64,000 nucleotides of DNA from an uncultured Candidatus Saccharibacteria bacterium. Lineage in GTDB: Bacteria > Patescibacteriota > Minisyncoccia > Phycocordibacterales > UBA918. This document shows positions 41,732 through 62,870 of this stretch, in pieces (the first letter of the stretch is position 1; every line of letters begins with the position of its first letter). A program made the position numbers and the translations under genes. A model generated the notes under the pieces. It was not told the origin of the DNA, made no database searches, and worked only from the letters and a program-made list of their open reading frames with translations. The stretch covers positions 86,454 to 150,453 of the forward strand of contig CAYNQD010000001.1 of assembly GCA_964399295.1 (NCBI GenBank), read 5' to 3'.

Positions 41732-43306
41732 ATGAAAGCAATAGTACTAGCTCGTGTATCTACTGAAGAACAACGTGAAGCTGGTAACTCATTGCCAGCA
41801 CAACAAGCGAGACTTATCTCTTACATTGAGAAATCATTCAGTAAGACAAACAATCAAAAATTAGTGCTCGAAAAAGAGTTCGTTTTTGACGAGAGTGCCT
41901 ATAAAGAGCATCGAAAAGAGTTTAATAAAATAACCGAGTACATTGAAGGTTTTAAAGAAACTGTAGCTCTTTGCTGTGATAAAGTTGACCGACTATCGAG
42001 AGACTTTTTAATCGGTCTGCCTGTGTTAGAGAGGTTGAGACGAGATGGAAAGATTGAGCTTCACTTTCCATCAGATAACTTAGTTCTACACCAAAATTCG
42101 CCTGCCACAGACCTTTTCCACTACAACATCGCCCTTGCTCTAGCCCAGTACTATTCAAACGCCATCAGTGATAATACTAAAAGAGCACTTGAACAAAAGC
42201 GAAGAAATGGAGAATGGACTGGTAAGGTACGTATAGGTTATTTGAACGTGTCGCTTGATGCTGAAAAACGCCTTCGAAAAGATATAATCATAGATCCGTT
42301 TAGAGGACCGCTTATTCAGAAGTTGTTTGAGCTGTATGCAACAGGCAACCATTCACTTGAAAGCGTTCGCTCCGAAATCATTAAACTTGGTTTGAGAAGT
42401 CTTGATGAAAATAAGCCTTCCAAAAGTAATATCGATCTAATTCTCAATGATCCTTTTTACTGTGGTATTGCTGTGTCGAAAAAGTACGGTAAGTTTGCTC
42501 ATCGCTATCCGAAACTAATTTCGAAAGAGCTTTTTGACCGATGCCAAGAAGTGCGAACTAAGAGAACCAATAACCGAAATAAGGTAGTCTCAAAGGATTT
42601 CATCTTCAAAGGGATGCTTAAATGTGCTAATTGTGGCTGTTCGATGAGTGCTGAAACGAAAGTAAAACCGAGTGGCAAATCCTATACGTATTATTCTTGC
42701 ACGAATGCCAAAAAAACCTGCAAAAAACAATACGTTACTGAGCAAGACCTCCTAAAGCCCATCTGGGACGTACTGGGACGTTTCGGAACGATTTCAGAGC
42801 AGGTACAGGCTGATCTAGTATCTGAGCTAAGAAAGACCACAGAAGCCGAAATTGAGTTCCATAAGGCACAATTAAACCGTATCCGAAATGAATACGAAGA
42901 ACTTAAGAAGAAGGACGATCGTTTGCTGGATGCTTATCTAGACCAGAGTATTACTAAAGATGTCTATGACAAAAAACATCAAGACTATGCTGACAAGCTC
43001 CAGCTCCTTGAGATAGAATTATCAGAGTACCGAAAAGCTGACTACGACTACCAAACAACCGTTGCTACAGTCATATCTTTGGCACGAAGAGCACAAGCCA
43101 TCTTCGATGGTTGTTCTGAAGTTGCTGAAAAGAGAGCGTTTTTGAATTTGATACTTCAGAACCCGACCGTAAACGGAAAAAAGCTAGATTTTACACTAGC
43201 TTCTCCGTTTAATTTGGTCCTTGATTTAGCTGACGTCTCTTCTGGCTCCGCAGGTAGGATTCGAACCTACGACCAATCGGTTAACAGCCGATTGCTCTAC
43301 CGCTGA
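41732..43306 (+). CDS. Large serine recombinase (second copy); 3' end overlaps tRNA-Asn
   Basis: MKAIVLARVSTEEQREAGNSLPAQQ resolvase motif with catalytic Ser. Cys cluster CANCGCSMSAETK...CTNAKKTCKKQ and coiled-coil. The last about 21 codons are read through the tRNA gene on the opposite strand. Confidence 0.8.
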   Translation: MKAIVLARVSTEEQREAGNSLPAQQARLISYIEKSFSKTNNQKLVLEKEFVFDESAYKEHRKEFNKITEYIEGFKETVALCCDKVDRLSRDFLIGLPVLERLRRDGKIELHFPSDNLVLHQNSPATDLFHYNIALALAQYYSNAISDNTKRALEQKRRNGEWTGKVRIGYLNVSLDAEKRLRKDIIIDPFRGPLIQKLFELYATGNHSLESVRSEIIKLGLRSLDENKPSKSNIDLILNDPFYCGIAVSKKYGKFAHRYPKLISKELFDRCQEVRTKRTNNRNKVVSKDFIFKGMLKCANCGCSMSAETKVKPSGKSYTYYSCTNAKKTCKKQYVTEQDLLKPIWDVLGRFGTISEQVQADLVSELRKTTEAEIEFHKAQLNRIRNEYEELKKKDDRLLDAYLDQSITKDVYDKKHQDYADKLQLLEIELSEYRKADYDYQTTVATVISLARRAQAIFDGCSEVAEKRAFLNLILQNPTVNGKKLDFTLASPFNLVLDLADVSSGSAGRIRTYDQSVNSRLLYR

Positions 43307-43317
43307 GCTACTGCGGA
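43243..43317 (-). tRNA. tRNA-Asn (anticodon GUU) with encoded CCA
   Basis: Minus-strand UCCGCAGUAGCUCAGCGGUAGAGCAAUCGGCUGUUAACCGAUUGGUCGUAGGUUCGAAUCCUACCUGCGGAGCCA. The 7-bp acceptor, D arm GCUC/GAGC, anticodon stem AUCGG/CCGAU with loop CUGUUAA, and T-arm GUAGG-UUCGAAU-CCUAC all form. Confidence 0.85.
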
Positions 43318-45991: not shown

Positions 45992-47887
45992 CTAAACAAT
46001 ACGGCTAGGATCAATTTCCACTCTGACATAAGGCGGAAGATTCCTGATGATATCTATCAGTGCCTTATATTCCTTGCTGCCGACAGGCAGTCTAAACAAA
46101 GAATGCCGCAGTAATTTCCCTTGTCCAAAAGTGGGATTGCTATAAAAAAGACCATTGTAAGGCTTGGTTAAAGCTTTTATTGTTTCCTCTGTGGATAGGA
46201 TAAATTCTTTGGTGCCTGTCCAGCTCAGTAGTACAAAAGTTGAAAAAGGTGGGTAATTCAAACTTTCTCTCAGGGCTAATTCATCACTGTAGAAGTTTTC
46301 CAAACTGCCGGTTTTGACGTAATTGATCAATTCATCAGGCGGGGTACGGGTTTGAACCAGCACTTCCTTGTGGGAAATTTCTCGTAGTTGCAGCAGGAGT
46401 CTGAAAGTGTCTTCGTCGGCTCTCCAGGTGGGATTGGAACGAGTGGCATCCAGAGAAATGATGGCGCTTAAATCCACTCCGCGTAGCGTCAGGTAGGGTA
46501 AGGTCATGGTCGTGCCAATCAAAATCACGCCGCGTTTGGAATAAAATTCATCAATAATTTTTTCCGCTCGTTTTTTGGTAGCGGCAGTGGTGTTGTCAAA
46601 AAGTAAAACGGTTTGGTTGGGGAAATTGGCGACGGCCTCATCAAAGACATGTTGAATACCGATGCCGCGTTGTTTTAGCCTCCAAGAGCCGCAGTCGGTA
46701 CAAGTATCGGCCGCTCGCACTCTTCGTCCAGAAGTGCTGGAAACAAACCACCTTTCTTCTTCACCGTCTTTTTTATATGTCCGCAGTAGTGAATAGGGGG
46801 TGTTGGAATCGGGGCAACGAAAAATAAAACCACAATCAATACAGGCTACAACTGGAGAAATTCCCCGTCTAGCTCCATACAAAAAGACTCGTCCACGGCT
46901 TTCTAAAGTACTGTTAATTCTTTTTTTTAGCTCTGTGGAGAATAGCAAAAAAGGCAAGTGCGGCGAGGGCTTGTCTTTTTGTTCGATGATGGTGAATGGA
47001 GTGGAGAAGGCGATGCGTTTTGTTTCTTCGTTGTGGGTGAGGTATTTTTCGGTTCTTCGATAATGTTCATCTTCGGCGCGCGGCAAAATGTCCCCCAGCA
47101 AAATACTACGACCGGTAACTTTGGCTTGAGTGATTAGGGCGGTGCGATGGTCGAGGTAGGGGCGGGTTCGGTCTTTGTATAAGTTATTGGCGCTTCTTTC
47201 GATTATTATTGAGAGCAGATCAACACGGTCCAGGTAGGCGTGAGAAGGGGTGGTCAAAATTACTTTGGCGATACTGGTATCTTCAAAAGCAGCATAAGCC
47301 TTTTTGCGTTCGGTTTTTGATTGCTGGGGAGAAAATTTAACAATTCTATCTTCAATCCCGTGAGAAAGATGAGAGTGAGCATATTCCAAATCAACGGAAT
47401 TGGGAATCACAAACATAACAGAACCTCTCCTAGCCAAAGTGCTTCTGATATGGCTGCGGTAGGTGACGTATCTTTCTGGGATAATGGCGGTCAAAATCTG
47501 TGGCGCGGTATCTTCGTGGTGGGTGAGTGAGGATACTGTCGGGTATTGATACTGGCCATTACGGAGATCGGGTGATAGGAGTTGGTACAAGATTGCTCCC
47601 AGTGAACTGGGGTAAATTTCGGTTAATTTTTCTGCGGTTTGTCGTAAACATAGAGGAATTATGGCTGGGTTGGTTTGTTCGGGGAGTTTGCGCAGGGCAA
47701 AGGAGGCGTTTCTGAGTGAGGTTTTGTGGTCGGTAGCTGGTTTGCTGCTGGTTATGATGGCGCGGTGGTTTTTATTCCTAATTGGCACGGTCACAAAAGT
47801 ACCGACTTCATAGTTTACGCTACTAAAATAAGTCAGAGTGTTTATTTTGGTGGCTTTAATAAGGGGAATGACCTGGATGACAAACAT
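45992..47887 (-). CDS. priA: Primosomal protein N' (PriA) with degenerate helicase Walker A/B motifs
   Basis: N-terminal 3'-DNA-binding-type start. CIDCGFIFRCP...CTDCGSW zinc-binding region. Aligns with the E. coli PriA helicase core, but GVTGSGKT becomes AIIPERYV and VIDEEHDSSYKQ becomes IIIERSANNLYKD. Confidence 0.7.
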   Translation of the reverse strand: MFVIQVIPLIKATKINTLTYFSSVNYEVGTFVTVPIRNKNHRAIITSSKPATDHKTSLRNASFALRKLPEQTNPAIIPLCLRQTAEKLTEIYPSSLGAILYQLLSPDLRNGQYQYPTVSSLTHHEDTAPQILTAIIPERYVTYRSHIRSTLARRGSVMFVIPNSVDLEYAHSHLSHGIEDRIVKFSPQQSKTERKKAYAAFEDTSIAKVILTTPSHAYLDRVDLLSIIIERSANNLYKDRTRPYLDHRTALITQAKVTGRSILLGDILPRAEDEHYRRTEKYLTHNEETKRIAFSTPFTIIEQKDKPSPHLPFLLFSTELKKRINSTLESRGRVFLYGARRGISPVVACIDCGFIFRCPDSNTPYSLLRTYKKDGEEERWFVSSTSGRRVRAADTCTDCGSWRLKQRGIGIQHVFDEAVANFPNQTVLLFDNTTAATKKRAEKIIDEFYSKRGVILIGTTMTLPYLTLRGVDLSAIISLDATRSNPTWRADEDTFRLLLQLREISHKEVLVQTRTPPDELINYVKTGSLENFYSDELALRESLNYPPFSTFVLLSWTGTKEFILSTEETIKALTKPYNGLFYSNPTFGQGKLLRHSLFRLPVGSKEYKALIDIIRNLPPYVRVEIDPSRIV

Positions 47888-47963: not shown

Positions 47964-49463
47964 CTAAAACTCATCTAAATATTCAATTTTGGCACCAAGT
48001 GAAGACAGTCTTTCTACTAATTTTTCATAACCGCGGTTGATGCTGTAGATGTTGCGTAAGACGCTGTGTCCGTTGGCCCCCAGCATGGCAATCAAGAGTA
48101 TGGTGGCGGGACGAAGGGCGGGCGGGCAGATGAGTTCAGTTGGTTTGAGTTCGGTGGGGCCGGTGATGTAGATGCGGTGCGGATCAGCCAAAACCGTGTC
48201 CGCTCCCAGCTTTTCCAGTTCGGTAAAATAAATGGCTCGCTTCTCATAAACCCAGTCGTGGATTAGGGTTTGGCCTTCCGCTTGAGTAGCGATAACGGCA
48301 AAAAAGGGAAGGTTGTCTATATTGAGTCCGGGATAAACAGAGGGGTGGATTTTTTCGTGCAAGGCGATTAGTTTTGATGGTTTGGTGGTGATATTGACTA
48401 ATTTTGTAAAATTATTATCAGATAAATAAACTTTAGATTTGGTGTACTTAAAACCCATTTTCTCCAGCTTTAAAAGCTCAAGTTCCAGAAATTCAATGGG
48501 GCAACGAGTGATGGTTATAGCTGAATTGGTGACAATAGCTGTCGCTAAAAAAAACATACTGTCGGTTGGGTCTTCCGACAAGGTGTAGGTAATGTTTTTA
48601 TTTATATCCGCCACTCCCGTGACTTTCAGTGTGGTGGTGCCGATACCTTCAATCTTAACTCCTAATAATTGGAGAAAAATACAAATTTCCTGCACCATGT
48701 AATTGGCGGAAGCGTACTTTATAACGGTGGTGGACGGAGTTCTGGCTGCCGCAAAAAGAGCATTTTCCGTAACGGTGTCGCCGGATTCATAAAGAATGAC
48801 TTCCTCCGGACTTTTATTAGTATGAATTATTTCATAACTATCATCAGTGGTTTTGATATCAACGCCAAAATGTTCCAGGGCGTAGAAATGCGGTCTGACA
48901 GTCCGGCTTCCGAGCTTGCAGCCGCCTGATTGCGGGAGATTAAATTTTGGTAAAAAATGAATCAGCGGCCCGATAAACATCACGATGCTGCGAGTACGCT
49001 TGGCGGCTTCAGTATCGATCTTTCTTAATTGGTACTGCTTGGGCGGGGTAATAACGACCGTGCTGTCTTTCCAGTCTACCTTGGCGCCGATACTCTCTAG
49101 GACTTCAATAATACGGTGCACTTCCTCAATTCGAGGCATGCGGTGCAGGGTGGTTGTGCCGCGATTGAGGATACTGGCGCAGAGCAAGCCCACAGCGCCA
49201 TTTTTGGAGGTGTTTGTCTCGATGGTGCCGCTCAGCTTTTTTTTGCCTTCAATCTCGACATTGACCGTCCCCAGGGAAAGGGTAATCAGGTTTTTGCCGA
49301 GGGCCTTGCTGATTTTTTTCAACATATCAGCGCTGATGTTTTGTCGGCCTGATTCCATGCGAGCAACGGCACTTTGAGTAGTGTTGATTTTTTTTGCCAA
49401 TTCAGCTTGCGTCAAGCCTTTGGTTTCGCGCATATCGGCGATGCGATGTCCAATATTTAACAT
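47964..49463 (-). CDS. murA: XRE-family HTH fused to UDP-N-acetylglucosamine 1-carboxyvinyltransferase (MurA)
   Basis: N-terminal about 65 aa LTQAELAKKINTTQSAVARMESGRQNIS (HTH_XRE). Remainder is EPSP-synthase fold with GGCKLGSRTVRPHFYALEHFG matching MurA GGCAIGARPVDLHI (catalytic Cys). Confidence 0.75.
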   Translation of the reverse strand: MLNIGHRIADMRETKGLTQAELAKKINTTQSAVARMESGRQNISADMLKKISKALGKNLITLSLGTVNVEIEGKKKLSGTIETNTSKNGAVGLLCASILNRGTTTLHRMPRIEEVHRIIEVLESIGAKVDWKDSTVVITPPKQYQLRKIDTEAAKRTRSIVMFIGPLIHFLPKFNLPQSGGCKLGSRTVRPHFYALEHFGVDIKTTDDSYEIIHTNKSPEEVILYESGDTVTENALFAAARTPSTTVIKYASANYMVQEICIFLQLLGVKIEGIGTTTLKVTGVADINKNITYTLSEDPTDSMFFLATAIVTNSAITITRCPIEFLELELLKLEKMGFKYTKSKVYLSDNNFTKLVNITTKPSKLIALHEKIHPSVYPGLNIDNLPFFAVIATQAEGQTLIHDWVYEKRAIYFTELEKLGADTVLADPHRIYITGPTELKPTELICPPALRPATILLIAMLGANGHSVLRNIYSINRGYEKLVERLSSLGAKIEYLDEF

Positions 49464-49544
49464 ATCTTGCCATTATAGCATATATGCTATGGAAAAATAC
49501 TTTGTAGTTTTGGATAAAAGCGGTACTATGGTGTATCTATAGCT

Positions 49545-50561
49545 ATGTCTTGGAATAATCTAACTCCCAAAATAGGAATTGATCTTGGTACGACTAGTAT
49601 TTTGGTTTTTGTACCTGGACACGGCATTGTTCTCAATGAACCGTCAGTGGTTGCCATATCGGACGACAATCGAGTGGTGGCTGTCGGCGCTGAGGCCAAA
49701 CAAATGATTGGTAGAACTCCCGACACCATCAGAGCCTATCGTCCGATGAAAGATGGCGTGATTGCTGATTATCGCGTGACGGAAGCCATGCTTCGTTATT
49801 TTCTTCGTAAAGCTCTGGGGAAATATAATATTTTTAAACCGGATGTCATGGTGTCGGTGCCGGCGGGCGTAACCTCGACCGAGAGACGAGCAGTGGTGGA
49901 AGCCACTCTCAAGGCAGGAGCCAAAAATGCCTACGTGGTGAAAGAGCCAATTTTGGCAGCTATCGGAGCGGGTGTACCAATCTACGAAGCACAAGGGCAT
50001 ATGATTATTGATATTGGCGGTGGGACTATCGACGTGGCTGTTATTTCACTCGGCGGTATTGTAGCTTCAAATTCAGTCAAATGTGCCGGCAACCGCATCG
50101 ACACCGCCATCATAGATTATGTTAAGAAATCCAGAAATTTATCTATCGGTGAAAAAACCGCTGAGGAAATTAAGATTACCATTGGTTCCGCTTTGCCGTT
50201 GGAGGAAGAGTTGGTAATGGATATAAATGGAAGAGATGTCTTGTCGGGTTTGCCGCGGACGACTGAAATTCGTACCAATGAAGTCGTCAAGGCTATTGGC
50301 AAGGAGTTGAGAGAAATGATAAAAGCCATAAAGGATGTCTTCCAAGAGACTCCGCCAGAATTAGCTTCAGACATTATTGACGGTGGTATCATCATGACAG
50401 GAGGAACTTCTCAATTGCGAAATTTTCCGGAACTGGTGAAAAGACGCACTGGAGTCAAAGCCCAGCTGGCTGATCGAGCTCTATTTTGCGTGGTCACCGG
50501 CACCGGTATCGCGCTTGAGCACCTTGATACCTACAAACGCACAGTTTTGGCAAAACGTTAA
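49545..50561 (+). CDS. MreB-like actin homolog (paralog, outside mreBCD operon)
   Basis: IGIDLGTTSILVFV phosphate-1, DIGGGTIDVAVIS phosphate-2, GGIIMTGGTSQL adenosine motif. 338 aa. Confidence 0.8.
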   Translation: MSWNNLTPKIGIDLGTTSILVFVPGHGIVLNEPSVVAISDDNRVVAVGAEAKQMIGRTPDTIRAYRPMKDGVIADYRVTEAMLRYFLRKALGKYNIFKPDVMVSVPAGVTSTERRAVVEATLKAGAKNAYVVKEPILAAIGAGVPIYEAQGHMIIDIGGGTIDVAVISLGGIVASNSVKCAGNRIDTAIIDYVKKSRNLSIGEKTAEEIKITIGSALPLEEELVMDINGRDVLSGLPRTTEIRTNEVVKAIGKELREMIKAIKDVFQETPPELASDIIDGGIIMTGGTSQLRNFPELVKRRTGVKAQLADRALFCVVTGTGIALEHLDTYKRTVLAKR

Positions 50562-50613: not shown

Positions 50614-53355
50614 ATGTCAGAGGAAATACCAAAGAGATTTTCCTCACCGGAGGAAGAGATATCTTATTTACGGGAACAAATCGCCGCTCGTGAGCGGGAG
50701 CTATTGTCTCGCTCTATTGAGTTAGACAAAACAGACATAGAAACTATCGGCAAGGAAGAAATTAGAGAATACGCGTCTTTTACACCCAGGATTATTCTGG
50801 ATCCAAGTCATAAATTAGACGATGCCAGCGTGGCTATTTCCGTTGAGCAGATTAAAGAGACATCCAATCCGGTGGAAGAAATAATTGCCTTGGCTTTGGA
50901 GAAGGGTATTCGTAATGCTTTGTCTGTTTTAGAAAAAATAGACAATGCTTACATAGTAGATGAAGTGCATAAGCGGCTGGTCGAACAGATTCGTTCGGGC
51001 GTGAATTTGCAGGATATAAAAGAGGGTGTGAAGGAATGGCATCTTCTGCACATGACGCTTTATGAATTGACTCTACCGGAGACAAAAGCCGCCAACGGCC
51101 GAGAGTACCAATTGGCGGAATTGGTGGGGATGATGGAGCAGTTATTCGCGGGTCTCCGAACTATAGGCTCAGTATATTCGTATAATCACTTCGCTATTGA
51201 AATTGCCGTGGCTGATTTTAGCGACGATATTATTTTCTACGTGGCGGTTCCAAATAAATTCGTTAATCTGTTTGAAAAACAAACTCTGTCTTTGTTTCCG
51301 CAAGCCCAACTAACAATCCAATCTCACGACTATAATATTTTTGTTAATGAGGGCACGACTCTCATTTCAGAAATGTCCTTAAAGAAACATCCGATCTATC
51401 CGATTCGCACTCACGACGGCTTTACTTCCGATCCTCTGTCTGTCATCTTGAACGCTTTTTCCAAAATCGACCGCGAAGGTGGCGGAGCAGCAGTACAGTT
51501 TTTGATGCGTTTTCCTCAGAAAAAGTATCGAAAAAGTTACGAAGAAATCATAAAAAGCATGCAAAAAGGCATGAAGGCCGGGGAGGCTATTTCTCGCAGC
51601 ACGGTCGGGGGAGAGATTATGGGTTCGTTGTCGGATTTTTTCTTCGCCAAGAAAAAGGGGGATGAGAGCGCGTCGTCTGAAATTGATAACGAAAAAATTG
51701 AACTTTTCTCACGGAAATTAAAATCTGAAATATTTGAAACCAATATTCGAATCGCGGTGTCAGCCAAGGAAAAAAGTCTGGCCGAACAAAGTCTAACCGA
51801 AATCGAATCCACTTTTAATCAATTTGATTTGGTTGAGAGCAATACTTTCGTGTCCAAGAGAGCCAAGGGTAATATAAAAAATTTACAAAAAGCCTTTGCG
51901 TTTCGCGAATTTTCTTCAAGTTCTGTCATTCCTTTCAATTTGACTGAATTATCTACTTTGATTCACTTTCCGGGCAATGGCATCGCTTCTTCTCCGCAAT
52001 TTAAACAATCTCATTCCGCGACAGCCGCTGCTCCGACAGATATGCCGACCGAAGGCACTATTATTGGCATCAATCGCCACCGCAATTCCGAACAAACCAT
52101 CTACATGAGCGAACTCGACCGTATGCGGCATTTGTACGTTATCGGGCAAACCGGTACCGGTAAATCAAAGTTTCTTACCAATCTAATCATTCAAGATATT
52201 CAGCAAGGAAACGGCGTGTGTATGATTGACCCGCATGGGACTGATATTGAAGAAGTATTGGGAGCGATTCCGCCGGAGCGAGAGCAAGATATCATATATT
52301 TTGATCCTTCCAGGATGGATCGGGTGGTTGGTCTTAATATGCTCGAATATGATATAAACAAACCCGAGCAAAAAACTTTCGTGGTCAATGAGTTGTTTTC
52401 TATTTTCCAAAAATTATACGGCGGCAATCCGGAATCAATGGGGCCGATGTTTGAACAATACTTTCGTAACGCCACGCTTTTGGTGATGGAAGACCCAGAC
52501 AGCGGCAATACTTTGATGGACATTTCCCGAGTGATGGCCGACGCAAAGTATCGTCGCATGAAGCTGGAAAAAGCCAAAAATCCGGTGGTGGTGCAATTTT
52601 GGCGAGAGATTGCCGGCAAGGCGGGAGGAGAAGCTTCGCTCGAAAATATTGTGCCGTACATTGTGTCAAAATTTGACGTTTTTACCGCCAACGATTACAT
52701 GCGGCCGATTATTGGCCAGCAAAAGTCAGCCTTTAATTTTCGGAAGGTGATGGACGAACGAAAGATTTTACTGGTAAATTTGTCAAAGGGGCGATTGGGA
52801 GAAATAAACGCCAATCTTATCGGCATGATATTTGTCGGCAAAATCCTGATGGCGGCTTTGTCGCGAGTCGACGATTCTTCCAAGTCCTTCGCTCCTTTTT
52901 ATCTGCATATAGATGAGTTTCAAAATGTCTCTACTCCGGCCATTGCTTCTATCTTGTCCGAAGCGCGAAAATACAAACTCAGCCTTACCATGGCGCACCA
53001 ATTTATCGCTCAGCTTGACTCCAGCATCAAAGACGCGGTGTTTGGCAACGTGGGTTCTCTGGTATCGTTCCGGGTCGGATCAGAGGATTCTCATTTCCTA
53101 GAGCAGCAATTCACGCCGGACTTTGAAGCCAAAGACCTGATGAATATACCAAATTACAATGCCATAGTCAGAATCCTCGCCAATGGCAAACCTACCAAAC
53201 CATTTAGTATGGCTACTTTGGCACCTATTACTTCGGATCAGACCCAAGTCAAACGATTGATTGAGCAGAGTGCCACTCGCTATGGCCGTTTGCGCGGGGA
53301 GGTGGAAGCGGAGATATCCGCAAGATACTCCAAGCCGGAGATTTTACCATTATAA
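50614..53355 (+). CDS. Large P-loop ATPase with TraG/VirD4/TrwB-like (T4SS coupling-protein-type) C-terminal domain and unknown N-terminal half
   Basis: Walker A YVIGQTGTGKSKF followed by MIDPHGTD (resembles coupling-protein IDPKGD). Walker B YLHIDEFQN. LSLTMAHQFIAQLD resembles the VirD4 QSxxQL region. No N-terminal TM helices. Confidence 0.45.
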   Translation: MSEEIPKRFSSPEEEISYLREQIAARERELLSRSIELDKTDIETIGKEEIREYASFTPRIILDPSHKLDDASVAISVEQIKETSNPVEEIIALALEKGIRNALSVLEKIDNAYIVDEVHKRLVEQIRSGVNLQDIKEGVKEWHLLHMTLYELTLPETKAANGREYQLAELVGMMEQLFAGLRTIGSVYSYNHFAIEIAVADFSDDIIFYVAVPNKFVNLFEKQTLSLFPQAQLTIQSHDYNIFVNEGTTLISEMSLKKHPIYPIRTHDGFTSDPLSVILNAFSKIDREGGGAAVQFLMRFPQKKYRKSYEEIIKSMQKGMKAGEAISRSTVGGEIMGSLSDFFFAKKKGDESASSEIDNEKIELFSRKLKSEIFETNIRIAVSAKEKSLAEQSLTEIESTFNQFDLVESNTFVSKRAKGNIKNLQKAFAFREFSSSSVIPFNLTELSTLIHFPGNGIASSPQFKQSHSATAAAPTDMPTEGTIIGINRHRNSEQTIYMSELDRMRHLYVIGQTGTGKSKFLTNLIIQDIQQGNGVCMIDPHGTDIEEVLGAIPPEREQDIIYFDPSRMDRVVGLNMLEYDINKPEQKTFVVNELFSIFQKLYGGNPESMGPMFEQYFRNATLLVMEDPDSGNTLMDISRVMADAKYRRMKLEKAKNPVVVQFWREIAGKAGGEASLENIVPYIVSKFDVFTANDYMRPIIGQQKSAFNFRKVMDERKILLVNLSKGRLGEINANLIGMIFVGKILMAALSRVDDSSKSFAPFYLHIDEFQNVSTPAIASILSEARKYKLSLTMAHQFIAQLDSSIKDAVFGNVGSLVSFRVGSEDSHFLEQQFTPDFEAKDLMNIPNYNAIVRILANGKPTKPFSMATLAPITSDQTQVKRLIEQSATRYGRLRGEVEAEISARYSKPEILPL

Positions 53356-53380: not shown

Positions 53381-56242
53381 ATGAGTGAGAAACTATCCAC
53401 ATCTGAAAGCGAACTTTCTTCAAGGTTAGAAAACGGGAATATTTCCGATGCTGTAGTTTTGGAAGATATAAAGAGAGAGGATGTAAGTTCAGAAAATACG
53501 GAGCAAGCTGAGTCTGATTCCAATAATCAAGAAACAAACGAATCCAGTCCGAAAGCCAAGCATGAATCTGATTTGAATAGTCAGGAAAAAATGGAGCTAG
53601 AGTTAAATCTCTTGGATAGAGAATTGAAAGACGCTATAGGTAACTTCAATCACATGATCGAAGTTAATGGTGTTCCTGATGGTTATACATATAAGGATTA
53701 TGTACAAAATATAATAAATAAAGTCGAGCAGTATGTTCACGATGATATTAAAACTGAGATTTTAGAAAAAGAAAATTATTTAAGAACAATAATAAAATAT
53801 ACAGAGATAATTGAAAAAGGTCATCATCCGGAGAGAGGGGGGGTCGACTCTGAAAACGCTAAAGAAGTTGAAGAAGAATCAATAGAGAAAAAAGAAGAAG
53901 ATTTAGCTGATGTAAACACAAAAGAAGAACCGGTAGAAGAAGTTGCAGAAGAAAAAAGTCAGGAACAAGAATTTTATGAAATAGCCAGAGAAGATTTATT
54001 TAAGTCTAAGGAAGGCTATAGAAATAAAAAAGCCGCCTATGAGGAAGCTCTGGAGAAATATCAAGAAGAACAAGCTGCAGTCGGTTTTTTTGGAAAGACA
54101 ACCACAAAAATCAAAAGTATTTTTGGTATAAAGCCGGAAATTCCTGAAGCTATAAAGAAATTAGAGACTAAGTACAAAGAAGCTCGAAAAGAATATTCTG
54201 AGAACTTGAGGCATTCTTTGATTAAAAGAGGTGAGGTAAGCGGCAATAAAGAATTTCAAGAAAGAGAGAGTGTGAGTCCCGCTGCCGTAGAAAAGTCTAA
54301 ATTCAGTAAAGCAGAAGCTTACGATTCCAATTCATTTGCTTTTAAAAATGCCTTCGCTCATAAATTTATTATTAAGCCCCATCAGAAGGCTATAGAAAAA
54401 CAACAGGAGATATTACTGAGCGAAGCCGAGAAGTCAAGATTAAGAAAAATAATGCTAACCCTGTCCAAAAATAAGTGGCATATTCGTACCGGTTTGGTGG
54501 TGGGGGCTGGAGTTTTGGGAGCGGTGACAGGAGGGGCAGCAGCGGCAGCTTTGGCCGGAGCCGGTATGCAAGCCGGGCGAATAGCGTTTGGGTCTATTGC
54601 TGGTATGGCGGGTGGTATGGCGGGGCATGCGATTTTCTCAGGACATGTTGAAAAATCAAATGAAGCTCTGGCTAAACAAGAGGCATTTACCAGAAAAAAT
54701 TATATATCTAGTAATTTAGATTATTTGGAAGAGCAATTGCTTAAGGCTCAAAAAACCAAAGATACGGCGGAAAAAAATCAGAGACGAGCCTCGGTGGCGG
54801 GGGCGGTGCTGGGAGGTGGACTTACGGCTTATAGTATGCCTGATATGGAAGCGGCAGAGTTGGTAAATAATATTTCCCAAAAGTCCGGTGAAGTGATGGA
54901 CACTTCACAAGAAGCTCTTGGAAAGGCTTTAGACCAGATGAATGAGGAGGCAAAAGATGCTCTCAAGGCTCTTGATAAAGTTATTGAAGAGAGTAAAGCT
55001 ACTGCCGCTAACGTCTCTGAGAAGGTCTCCGGCTCAGTTCCTGATGTTGTTAAAGATACTTATTCAGAATTAACTGAAGAAGCTAAAGAACAACTTTCAA
55101 ATCTTGCCCGACAAATGGGTGTAGGAGAAACAGATTCTACACCTACGTCGAAAATTGATGACTTAGCGTATGGAGTGCAAACGCCTGAGACAGTGTCTTC
55201 TATAGAATCTGGTGAAGTTGTATCGCATATGTACGAGGTGGTTAAAGGGGATACTTTGTGGCACATAATGAAAAGAGAGTACGCGGAGGTTTTAGATCAA
55301 CTTCCAGAAAATGAGCACAATAAAATCCTGGATAAGTTTTTTGATAAAGTCAGAGATGATGCTACTTTGATAAATTCACTGGGTCTAAAAAGTGTTGATG
55401 ATATTGATTTAATTTATCCTAAGGAAAATATTGATATCGGTCTGATTGGTGAGGAGTTAACAAAAATGGTTAATGGGGAAGTTGGAGATGAGGGTATCGC
55501 GATTCATGAGAAGAGCGCTACTTTGGAGGTCAAGGTTGAAGGCTCTGAAGAAACCAGTATCCCCATTAAAATAAACAACGATCCTTTTGCGTATGGTGCG
55601 GATTCGTTTGCCGGCGACGGAGTATATACGCCTGAGGCAGATATTTCGTCCAATACTCCTCATACCAGCGTACCTTTTCACACCGAACCAATCGTCGATG
55701 CTAGCAAATTAAACTTCGCTGAGACACCTATTCCCACAGAATCTACAGAAACGAACCTTCCTGTTCCTGTAGAACCTATAAAAACAACCGTCCCCCCAGA
55801 GAAAAATTATTTTGACAACATAAAGCCCGAGGTTCTTCCTCAAGAAATGATAGCTAAAGCGATTGATCGTTATGTCGAGGGAATAGAGTCAGGTACCTAC
55901 GATTTTATGGACAGGTTTGCCAATCACACCAGTCCCTTTCTATTTTTTAAAGAGATGGACTTGCGTGATTTTGATGAGTTTGGACAATCTGATGTTCGTG
56001 GTCAGTTTGCGGATCTGGCGAGAAGTGGTGGCGCGAATATAAAATATGAGACATACTTGGCTTTGAATGATCTTGTGGATATGATGAGAAAGGAGGTTGA
56101 TGCACCTTCAGACATATCTTTAAATGAATACTTTTCAAGATACTTAAAGGAACATCCACAGATAGTTGAGGCGCTTAATTCTAAAAATTTTGCTACAGTG
56201 CAAAATAAGCTTGCTCATGATTTATACTACTTAAGATCATAA
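53381..56242 (+). CDS. Giant acidic coiled-coil protein with Gly/Ala-rich membrane-like segment and LysM-like motif
   Basis: 953 aa. E/K-rich N-terminus. GLVVGAGVLGAVTGGAAAAALAGAG...GMAGGMAGHAIFSG hydrophobic glycine-zipper region. YEVVKGDTLWHIMKREY LysM-like. Confidence 0.4.
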   Translation: MSEKLSTSESELSSRLENGNISDAVVLEDIKREDVSSENTEQAESDSNNQETNESSPKAKHESDLNSQEKMELELNLLDRELKDAIGNFNHMIEVNGVPDGYTYKDYVQNIINKVEQYVHDDIKTEILEKENYLRTIIKYTEIIEKGHHPERGGVDSENAKEVEEESIEKKEEDLADVNTKEEPVEEVAEEKSQEQEFYEIAREDLFKSKEGYRNKKAAYEEALEKYQEEQAAVGFFGKTTTKIKSIFGIKPEIPEAIKKLETKYKEARKEYSENLRHSLIKRGEVSGNKEFQERESVSPAAVEKSKFSKAEAYDSNSFAFKNAFAHKFIIKPHQKAIEKQQEILLSEAEKSRLRKIMLTLSKNKWHIRTGLVVGAGVLGAVTGGAAAAALAGAGMQAGRIAFGSIAGMAGGMAGHAIFSGHVEKSNEALAKQEAFTRKNYISSNLDYLEEQLLKAQKTKDTAEKNQRRASVAGAVLGGGLTAYSMPDMEAAELVNNISQKSGEVMDTSQEALGKALDQMNEEAKDALKALDKVIEESKATAANVSEKVSGSVPDVVKDTYSELTEEAKEQLSNLARQMGVGETDSTPTSKIDDLAYGVQTPETVSSIESGEVVSHMYEVVKGDTLWHIMKREYAEVLDQLPENEHNKILDKFFDKVRDDATLINSLGLKSVDDIDLIYPKENIDIGLIGEELTKMVNGEVGDEGIAIHEKSATLEVKVEGSEETSIPIKINNDPFAYGADSFAGDGVYTPEADISSNTPHTSVPFHTEPIVDASKLNFAETPIPTESTETNLPVPVEPIKTTVPPEKNYFDNIKPEVLPQEMIAKAIDRYVEGIESGTYDFMDRFANHTSPFLFFKEMDLRDFDEFGQSDVRGQFADLARSGGANIKYETYLALNDLVDMMRKEVDAPSDISLNEYFSRYLKEHPQIVEALNSKNFATVQNKLAHDLYYLRS

Positions 56243-61796: not shown

Positions 61797-62870
61797 ATGA
61801 GTTTTTTAACCCAAAATCTAAATAAGTTTTTGTCGGTAATTTCCACCGATATGGCTATTGACCTTGGTACGGCCAATACTTTAGTTTACGTAAAAGGCAA
61901 AGGAATTGTTTTGAATGAACCAACAATCGTTGCCATAAACAAAAAAACCGGACAATTAGTAGCTGTTGGCCAGGAGGCAAAAGCGATGCAGGGGCGGACC
62001 CCGCAGCACGTTGAAGTGATTCGTCCTTTGGTCGACGGCGTTATTTCAGATTTTGAAATGACAGAGGAAATGTTGAGTTACTTAATCAACAAAACACAAA
62101 ATGACAATCGTGCTTTCATTTCGCCAAAAATCCTAATTGGAGTGCCGTCGGGCATAACCAACGTAGAAATGAGAGCCGCCCGCGACGCCGCCAAAAATGC
62201 CGGCGCCCGTGACGTTTTTTTGATTGAAGAACCAATGGCGGCCGCTATTGGCGCCAAATTACCAATTGGTAAAGCGGCTGGAAATATGATTATTGATATC
62301 GGCGGCGGTACTACGGATATTGCGGTCATTTCGCTCAATGGTATCGTGGTGGCAAAAAATTTACGGGTGGCGGGCGACCATTTAAATTCAGCCATTTCTT
62401 CTTATGTTAGAGATCAGTTTAAAATCTATGTTGGTGAGAAGACGGCTGAGGATGCAAAAATCGCCCTGGCTTCTGTCAAACGAGATGGCAGTGGTAGTGA
62501 GATGGTGATTCGCGGTAGAGATGTGATGACGGGCTTGCCCAGAGAAGTAATTATCACCGCTGGCGACGTAAAAGACGCCGTCATCAACCAAATCGACAGC
62601 ATCGTGGAGTCCACCAAAACTGTGCTTGAAAAAACACCGCCGGAAGTATTGGCTGATATAATGCAAAGAGGAATACATATCTGCGGCGGCGGGGCTTTGA
62701 TTCCAGGGCTGGCGGCTTTGTTGGAAGAAAGTTTGCAAGTGCCGGTGATTGTGGTGCCGGATCCATTGCGGTCAGTGGTACGAGGAGCCGGTATTGTTAT
62801 TGAAAATTTTGATCAATATGAAGAAATACTCATCGACAACGAAGGTGAATTATCACCATACCTTGCGTAA
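61797..62870 (+). CDS. mreB: Rod shape-determining protein MreB
   Basis: MAIDLGTANTLVYV, DIGGGTTDIAVIS and HICGGGALIPGL motifs. Followed by mreC/mreD. Confidence 0.85.
   Translation: MSFLTQNLNKFLSVISTDMAIDLGTANTLVYVKGKGIVLNEPTIVAINKKTGQLVAVGQEAKAMQGRTPQHVEVIRPLVDGVISDFEMTEEMLSYLINKTQNDNRAFISPKILIGVPSGITNVEMRAARDAAKNAGARDVFLIEEPMAAAIGAKLPIGKAAGNMIIDIGGGTTDIAVISLNGIVVAKNLRVAGDHLNSAISSYVRDQFKIYVGEKTAEDAKIALASVKRDGSGSEMVIRGRDVMTGLPREVIITAGDVKDAVINQIDSIVESTKTVLEKTPPEVLADIMQRGIHICGGGALIPGLAALLEESLQVPVIVVPDPLRSVVRGAGIVIENFDQYEEILIDNEGELSPYLA

Follow-up and report, generated by a model that had tools for sequence, protein, structure and literature searches.

An XRE-type helix-turn-helix domain fused to MurA, with a candidate operator at its own promoter, is common in Patescibacteria and Actinomycetota

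Trigger enzymes such as BirA, PutA and NadR combine an enzyme and a DNA-binding domain in one polypeptide and control their own promoter or pathway; their operators overlap the core promoter, and they are defined by ligand-dependent DNA binding. In a second set of proteins—BzdR, with its shikimate-kinase-like domain, and the XRE-cupin regulators PuuR and PsdR—an N-terminal XRE helix-turn-helix (HTH) is followed by a linker and a C-terminal small-molecule-binding domain of enzymatic ancestry, and a palindromic operator lies at the regulated promoter. MurA catalyses the committed step of cell-wall synthesis and is the enzyme that fosfomycin targets; it is known to be controlled post-translationally, by ClpCP/ReoM proteolysis and by UDP-MurNAc feedback. 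Here we describe a gene that joins an XRE-type HTH to MurA (HTH-MurA). It lies in a 64,000-nucleotide (nt) stretch of assembly GCA_964399295.1 (contig CAYNQD010000001.1, positions 86,454 to 150,453; guanine-plus-cytosine (GC) content, 42%), which we call the window and whose coordinates are used throughout. We consider it likely that HTH-MurA is a trigger enzyme with two functions, MurA catalysis and repression of its own promoter.

HTH-MurA would resemble BirA, PutA and NadR in two respects: (i) enzyme and DNA-binding domain share a polypeptide that is predicted to control its own promoter or pathway, and (ii) the putative operator overlaps the core promoter. It differs from them in pairing a cell-wall enzyme with an XRE HTH, a combination for which we found no report. 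With BzdR, PuuR and PsdR it shares the order of its parts and a palindromic site at the promoter, and its HTH weakly matches the PRK08154 (BzdR-type) and PuuR profiles. In those proteins, however, the C-terminal domain is not the working enzyme of the pathway, whereas the catalytic residues of HTH-MurA are conserved; only the degenerate relatives described below (P0131, P0132, P0136, P0227 and others) fit the logic of BzdR.

A sequence-only reading of the window had proposed that this gene encodes a complete MurA, catalytic-cysteine loop included, with an XRE-family HTH fused to its N-terminus. Both proposals hold. The gene is a single 499-residue open reading frame (ORF) matching the Pfam families HTH_3 and EPSP_synthase, with the following parts:

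47964..49463, minus strand: HTH-MurA fusion gene, 499 amino acids plus stop codon, ATG start (ORF list, Pfam, NCBIfam; architecture kept in all top matches)
49296..49463, minus strand: XRE/Cro-C1-type HTH domain, residues 1-56, four helices (HTH_3, AlphaFold2 model)
49260..49295, minus strand: interdomain linker, residues 57-68 (low model confidence, lowest conservation)
47967..49259, minus strand: MurA (UDP-GlcNAc 1-carboxyvinyltransferase) domain, residues 69-499 (PF00275, NF006873, PDB alignments, model)
48891..48926, minus strand: residues 180-191, GGCKLGSRTVRP, the catalytic loop (Cys182 and Arg187 align with Cys115 and Arg120, respectively, of E. coli MurA)

When the whole protein is searched against Pfam, HTH_3 matches residues 8-59 (E 5.7e-16; 58.7 bits against a cut-off of 23) and PF00275 EPSP_synthase spans residues 72-486 (E 1.6e-43); the MurA subfamily model NF006873 of NCBIfam is also passed (303.3 bits; cut-off, 297). 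AlphaFold2 models the MurA fold confidently (whole-model mean predicted local distance difference test (pLDDT), 89.9), and places the HTH helices at residues 2-14, 19-25, 30-37 and 45-55. Two segments fall below a pLDDT of 50: linker residues 60-65, and residues 181-187 of the catalytic loop, which is flexible or disordered in the model. Experimental MurA structures likewise show a flexible catalytic loop. In a PDB search, MurA chains align from residue ~58-72 through to the end of the protein and the HTH matches the phage 434 repressor, while no solved MurA structure was found to carry an N-terminal domain of this kind.

HTH-MurA is about 26-27% identical to E. coli MurA. Alignment of the two shows that eight of the nine active-site residues checked are retained (E. 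coli K22, N23, R91, C115, R120, D305, R371 and R397). All eight, including the loop cysteine and arginine, are unchanged in every one of the 81 fused proteins compared. The likeness to canonical MurA (E. coli, Enterobacter cloacae, and the Gram-positive MurA1/MurA2) thus covers the fold, the Cys115 loop, K22/R120/R397 and N23/D305. The canonical enzymes differ in lacking both the 68-residue HTH plus linker and a 14-residue insertion that precedes the D305 motif of HTH-MurA, and, in E. coli, in the presence of D369. From these comparisons, the MurA half looks catalytically competent.

The sequence-only reading called such a fusion "not standard". This is correct relative to model organisms, but not for Patescibacteria and Actinomycetota, where the fusion is very common. 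Scanning species-representative genomes with the recognition-helix motif gave at least 592 confirmed stretches, the best 80 of which were fetched as loci; the ortholog survey found the full-length, uninterrupted fusion in all 80 fetched loci, as well as both domains in every one of the best 120 database clusters (499-536 amino acids; 80-100% identical). Those best clusters that carry names belong to Nomurabacteria, Paceibacterota and Parcubacteria. Full-length fusions are encoded in 80 species-representative genomes and make up over 240 clusters of proteins grouped at 90% identity. Among the 80 loci are Patescibacteria (Paceibacteria, Kaiser-, Taylor-, Uhr-, Doudna- and Liptonbacteria, and many Saccharibacteria/Saccharimonadales including Nanosynbacter) and cultured Actinomycetota (Nocardioides, Streptomyces and Knoellia); a second protein search adds Nonomuraea, Streptomyces, Actinacidiphila, Streptacidiphilus, Marinactinospora and others with the same architecture. 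RefSeq labels the fused proteins either "helix-turn-helix domain-containing protein" or MurA. An exhaustive search of representatives at 50% identity recovers full-length fusions down to 33% identity, and unfused relatives at 37-59%.

The breadth of this distribution bears on whether the fusion could be an artefact of annotation or assembly, in which a sequencing error has joined two genes. The same uninterrupted ORF recurs in hundreds of independent assemblies, including those of Streptomyces, Nocardioides and Nonomuraea isolates, and this explanation is refuted to the point that we give it next to no credence. Nor is the HTH a separate gene that a stop codon or frameshift has split off in other assemblies: no interruption was seen in the fused genes, and among the unfused relatives no small separate HTH gene was found, the HTH being absent altogether.

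Both domains of the fused protein are conserved to a similar degree. Across the 81 fused proteins the mean pairwise identity is 58% for the HTH and 60% for MurA, and mean column conservation is 0.67 for the HTH and 0.70 for MurA versus 0.42, the lowest value, for the linker. The recognition helix, T[ST]QSA[VI][AN]R[IM]E, is almost invariant. Between the window protein and the actinobacterial fusions, identity is 53-56%. As a separate observation, the fusions of the actinobacterial loci (L055-L080) reach 70% identity with some Saccharibacteria-like copies (L048, L056); the mean identity of Saccharibacteria-like copies to those of other Patescibacteria is only 57%. The comparison suggests that the fused gene may have been transferred between Saccharibacteria and Actinomycetota, that is, between epibiont and host lineages; Actinomycetota are the known hosts of Saccharibacteria.

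The sequence-only reading offered autoregulation as one possible role for the HTH, and pointed to the gap of 49464-49544, upstream of the gene, as the place to look for a palindrome. One is present:

49475-49490, no strand assigned: perfect 16-bp palindrome ATAGCATATATGCTAT, candidate HTH operator (spotted by eye, confirmed by DNA search)
49472..49480, minus strand: extended -10 element TGcTATAAT over the right half of the palindrome (read from the sequence; ATG 8 nt downstream)

ATAGCATATATGCTAT is the sole zero-mismatch site in the window, and a regulon search of the same 64 kb found no second good operator. To count the site in relatives, 77 loci were examined over the 200 nt upstream of the fused gene, with the remainder of those loci as background. 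When at least 13/16 positions must match, 66 of the 77 loci have a site before the fused gene, versus 0.0075 per 200 nt elsewhere; at a threshold of at least 14/16, the figures are 46 of 77 and 0.0016. Three forms are seen: close Paceibacteria have ATAGCATATATGCTAT, the majority of the remaining Patescibacteria have ATATCATATATGATAT, and Streptomyces and Nocardioides, despite a GC content of ~70%, have ATCTCATATcTGAGAT. The half-sites co-vary, with the same variant found in both halves in 47 loci (ATATC in 28, ATAGC in 12, ATCTC in 7); a symmetric dimer would force just such paired changes, each half complementing its partner.

The spacing of these elements is similarly uniform. Counted from its first base, the operator is most often 27-29 nt from the start codon, a sharp peak shared by Patescibacteria and Actinomycetota. 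The -10 hexamer is followed 8 ± 1 nt later by the start codon, with no Shine-Dalgarno sequence, both in the window (49461-49480) and in 57 related loci. The near-constant spacing and the position of the ATG imply that HTH-MurA mRNA would be leaderless or near-leaderless in both phyla; the exceptions are L026-L028, L031, L036 and L049, in which 65-150 nt separate operator and start. In one relative, a TTGACA -35 box abuts the site on its upstream side. A site that covers the spacer and the -10 hexamer, as this putative operator does, is in the classical position for a repressor. The automated searches were less informative: a promoter scan did not pick up the extended -10 promoter because it has no good -35, its sole match (49415-49387) lying inside the HTH coding region, where no in-frame start that would yield a MurA-only product was found. 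The inverted-repeat search did not report the spacer-less palindrome, and Rfam found no RNA family in the HTH-MurA region.

Two groups of relatives serve as controls for the association between site and HTH. Firstly, in five of five unfused relatives from the same MurA branch (37-59% identical), the best upstream match is 9-12/16, and no operator is present. The unfused P0122 (L081) is particularly useful in that it has the same divergent mreB as the window: here the promoter half, TATGCTATACT, is kept and the left half-site has decayed. The left half-site thus appears to track the presence of the HTH rather than that of the promoter. In two other loci, L085 and L086, the DNA immediately 5' of the unfused murA resembles a tRNA gene by eye. 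Secondly, seven distant fused representatives keep the HTH and have lost the cysteine loop and most of the phosphoenolpyruvate (PEP)-binding residues. Six could be traced to contigs; five of these have the candidate operator, and three of the six lie inside murA/murB/ddl/Mur-ligase clusters:

P0131 (L082): operator 16/16; divergent from murB and from a separate 438-residue murA with 27% identity to the window protein, then ddl and a Mur ligase
P0132 (L089): operator 16/16; its cluster includes, on the opposite strand, a Mur ligase and a separate murA; a small unannotated ORF sits directly upstream, and a Mur ligase follows
P0136 (L090): operator 15/16; divergent from murA-murB, then a Mur ligase
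P0227 (L088): operator 15/16; no mur genes nearby
P0147 (L091): operator 15/16 (L091 4686-4701); third gene of a NUDIX hydrolase/sugar nucleotidyl-transferase operon, the site lying 49 nt before the first gene
P0142 (L087): no operator found; short contig

The arrangement in L091 hints that some family members may control nucleotide-sugar metabolism instead of mur genes. Intact fusions may also reach beyond their own promoter. In the Saccharibacteria-like locus L051, which has an intact fusion, a second site (15/16) lies upstream of a MurC-type ligase, and about nine loci have murB as the immediate divergent neighbour of the fused gene; in some lineages, the predicted operator is thus extended to murB- and murC-type promoters. 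Of the extra sites at L006 (between a priA-like gene and def), L060, L037, L038, L005 and L051, only the last looked meaningful.

The control groups allow a different account of the palindrome to be weighed, namely that it is a promoter element only, or the site of a different regulator, and that the HTH does something else, such as associating non-specifically with the nucleoid. The right half does coincide with TGnTAnnnT; XRE domains are abundant, and sites of this kind could be recognized by other regulators. The left half, however, falls within the spacer, a stretch in which promoters have no expected element, and yet is conserved and co-varies with the right; only the -10 half survives in the unfused relative with the same synteny. 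The site as a whole is found in none of the five unfused relatives and in five of the six degenerate, HTH-bearing ones, a pattern that weakens both the promoter-element and the other-regulator versions. One good site per 64 kb argues against non-specific nucleoid association, and the nucleoid tethering that the sequence-only reading had also entertained is disfavoured on the same ground. We regard this account as unlikely.

The degenerate relatives also raise the question of whether, in the source genome, HTH-MurA is mainly a transcription factor whose MurA fold acts as a sensor, the MurA activity itself being supplied by another gene. Catalytically dead family members adjoin a separate murA, as listed above, and actinomycetes have a second MurA, S. 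coelicolor having two (PMC12161575). Against this stand the invariance of the eight catalytic and binding residues in all 81 fused proteins and an NF006873 score above the cut-off. No second murA was found within 4 kb of the fused gene in the 80 loci, or in the window, the part of the genome covered here. Patescibacterial genomes are, moreover, small. A regulator-only role in the source genome is accordingly improbable in our view.

A third alternative draws on the neighbouring gene. The sequence-only reading had noted that the fused gene is divergent from an mreB paralog, as is indeed the case, and a second copy of mreB is present in the window:

49545-50561, plus strand: mreB, divergent, 81 bp upstream of the HTH-MurA gene (Pfam MreB_Mbl, E 7e-128)
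61797-62870, plus strand: second MreB paralog (mreB at about 61839-62834), 41% identical to the first

The cytoplasmic domain of RodZ is an XRE-like HTH that binds MreB, and the HTH of HTH-MurA could be a protein-protein module of this sort, tethering MurA to the elongation machinery with no binding of DNA. The likeness consists of an N-terminal XRE-like HTH on a cell-wall-related protein, together with mreB linkage, seen in the window and the closest clade. The differences are several. Scanned alone, the HTH domain scores about 62 bits with HTH_3 versus 14.8 bits with the RodZ-type HTH_25 (cut-off, 24.6); the protein has no transmembrane segment, the HTH running straight into MurA; and a dyad-symmetric DNA site, the candidate operator, tracks the HTH. 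Divergent mreB is found in 15 of the 80 loci, all within the closest Paceibacteria clade (L001-L018), and linkage to mreB is missing from the other 65, including every Saccharibacteria-like and actinobacterial locus fetched. Because the linkage is limited to this clade, mreB does not appear to be key to the fusion, and a RodZ-like function is very unlikely. The centre of the operator lies ~62 bp upstream of the mreB ATG, and co-regulation of mreB through the operator is possible.

We therefore return to autoregulation, a suggestion that has gained strong support in silico from an operator that appears to be conserved across two phyla and confined to the promoters of fused genes. In the mechanism that we propose, an active MurA carries an HTH on a flexible linker, and a dimer of this HTH—rather than some other protein—would bind the 16-bp palindrome ATAGCATATATGCTAT. 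In the promoter of the HTH-MurA gene itself, this site takes in the spacer and the TG motif and runs into the opening bases of the -10 hexamer. Because it overlies the core promoter, bound protein would exclude RNA polymerase, and binding would repress rather than activate; MurA would thereby repress its own synthesis. The expected outcome is that the committed step of peptidoglycan synthesis comes under negative autoregulation, which in some lineages would take in other mur genes. Dimerization would presumably be supplied by the MurA domain, and the open and closed ligand states of MurA (UDP-GlcNAc, PEP, UDP-MurNAc) may tune DNA affinity, the open/closed transition being part of the general ligand behaviour of the enzyme.

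Several points weigh against this reading. With respect to the enzyme, the strict MurA equivalog model TIGR01072 was failed (297.6 bits; cut-off, 392.7), for which reason we place the HTH-MurA protein in a divergent branch of the MurA family, and E. coli D369 is replaced in HTH-MurA. MurA enzymes are generally described as monomers, meaning that a dimerization surface must be assumed. With respect to the site, 11 of the 77 loci have no match at 13/16 or above, one of the six degenerate relatives likewise has no operator, and the right half of the palindrome doubles as the extended -10 box (TGnTAnnnT), such that part of the conservation of the operator is conservation of the promoter. Finally, a literature search found no published description of an HTH-MurA fusion, two papers with promising term matches (PMC12565409 and PMC4239341) having proved irrelevant; the fusion is apparently a very common, undescribed variant of the enzyme-repressor theme. 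Taking these points into account, we still judge autorepression to be probable.

A broader version of this idea can be put forward tentatively, as possible rather than probable. Here, the ligand state of the MurA domain (UDP-GlcNAc, PEP and the feedback ligand UDP-MurNAc) would set affinity for the operator. Transcription of murA, joined in some lineages by that of murB, murC and ddl, would in this way be linked directly to flux through the committed step. The fused module would have moved between Saccharibacteria and Actinomycetota, and decayed to a pure regulator in some lineages.

The remainder of the neighbourhood is less constant than the operator on the fused gene's own promoter, which is the sole constant across loci. 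The order murA, PriA-like ORF, def and fmt (all on the minus strand) is kept in the closest clade; elsewhere the neighbours vary, with SHMT in 25 loci, mreB in 15, and aconitase in one Streptomyces. The following ORFs and genes were also recorded in the window:

45992-47887, minus strand: 631-residue ORF downstream of murA, PriA-like by eye (cysteine-rich zinc-binding motifs; no Pfam match at E <= 1e-5)
50614-53355, plus strand: large ORF of 913 residues, no Pfam match at E <= 1e-5; GQTGTGKS P-loop motif; conserved beside mreB in related Paceibacteria (58-67% identity)
53381-56242, plus strand: large ORF of 953 residues, no Pfam match at E <= 1e-5
41732-43306, plus strand: large serine recombinase of 524 residues (Resolvase, Recombinase and Zn_ribbon_recom)
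43246-43317, minus strand: tRNA gene, the only Rfam tRNA in the window, overlapped by the 3' end of the recombinase gene

The overlap of recombinase and tRNA genes may mark the edge of an integrated element.

Among the Actinomycetota, the fused protein may already be familiar under another name. S. coelicolor MurA2 (SCO5998) is one of two MurA enzymes and is encoded beside the aconitase gene SCO5999 (PMC12161575). In Streptomyces, murA2 (SCO5998 / sven5810 / vnz_28735) is SigB-dependent (PMC8346170) and is a target of BldM-WhiI in sporulation (PMC4125116; PMC11005364). In these accounts (PMC12161575, PMC8346170, PMC4125116, PMC11005364) MurA2 is treated as a plain enzyme, and an HTH is unmentioned. 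A distinct MurA also serves actinomycetes as the housekeeping enzyme. In S. adustus, the fused gene is divergent from an aconitase gene, as SCO5998 is from SCO5999. On the strength of this shared neighbour, and not of the S. coelicolor sequence, Streptomyces MurA2 is probably the fused HTH-MurA protein. Aconitase synteny is seen in only one of the five Streptomyces loci (L073), and the equation with SCO5998 therefore stays at this strength; in L079, from an uncultured Actinomycetota metagenome-assembled genome, aconitase lies downstream.

If the proposed autorepression is correct, a built-in, sequence-specific repressor would be a third and very economical means of controlling MurA, beside proteolysis and product feedback, and one used by a large share of the Patescibacteria, which have few regulators, and by many actinomycetes. 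The catalytically dead relatives in mur clusters would then form a natural gradation between enzyme-regulator and pure regulator. The idea is directly testable, because cultured and tractable Streptomyces and Nocardioides have the same protein and candidate operator, and results obtained in them would transfer to the uncultured Patescibacteria.

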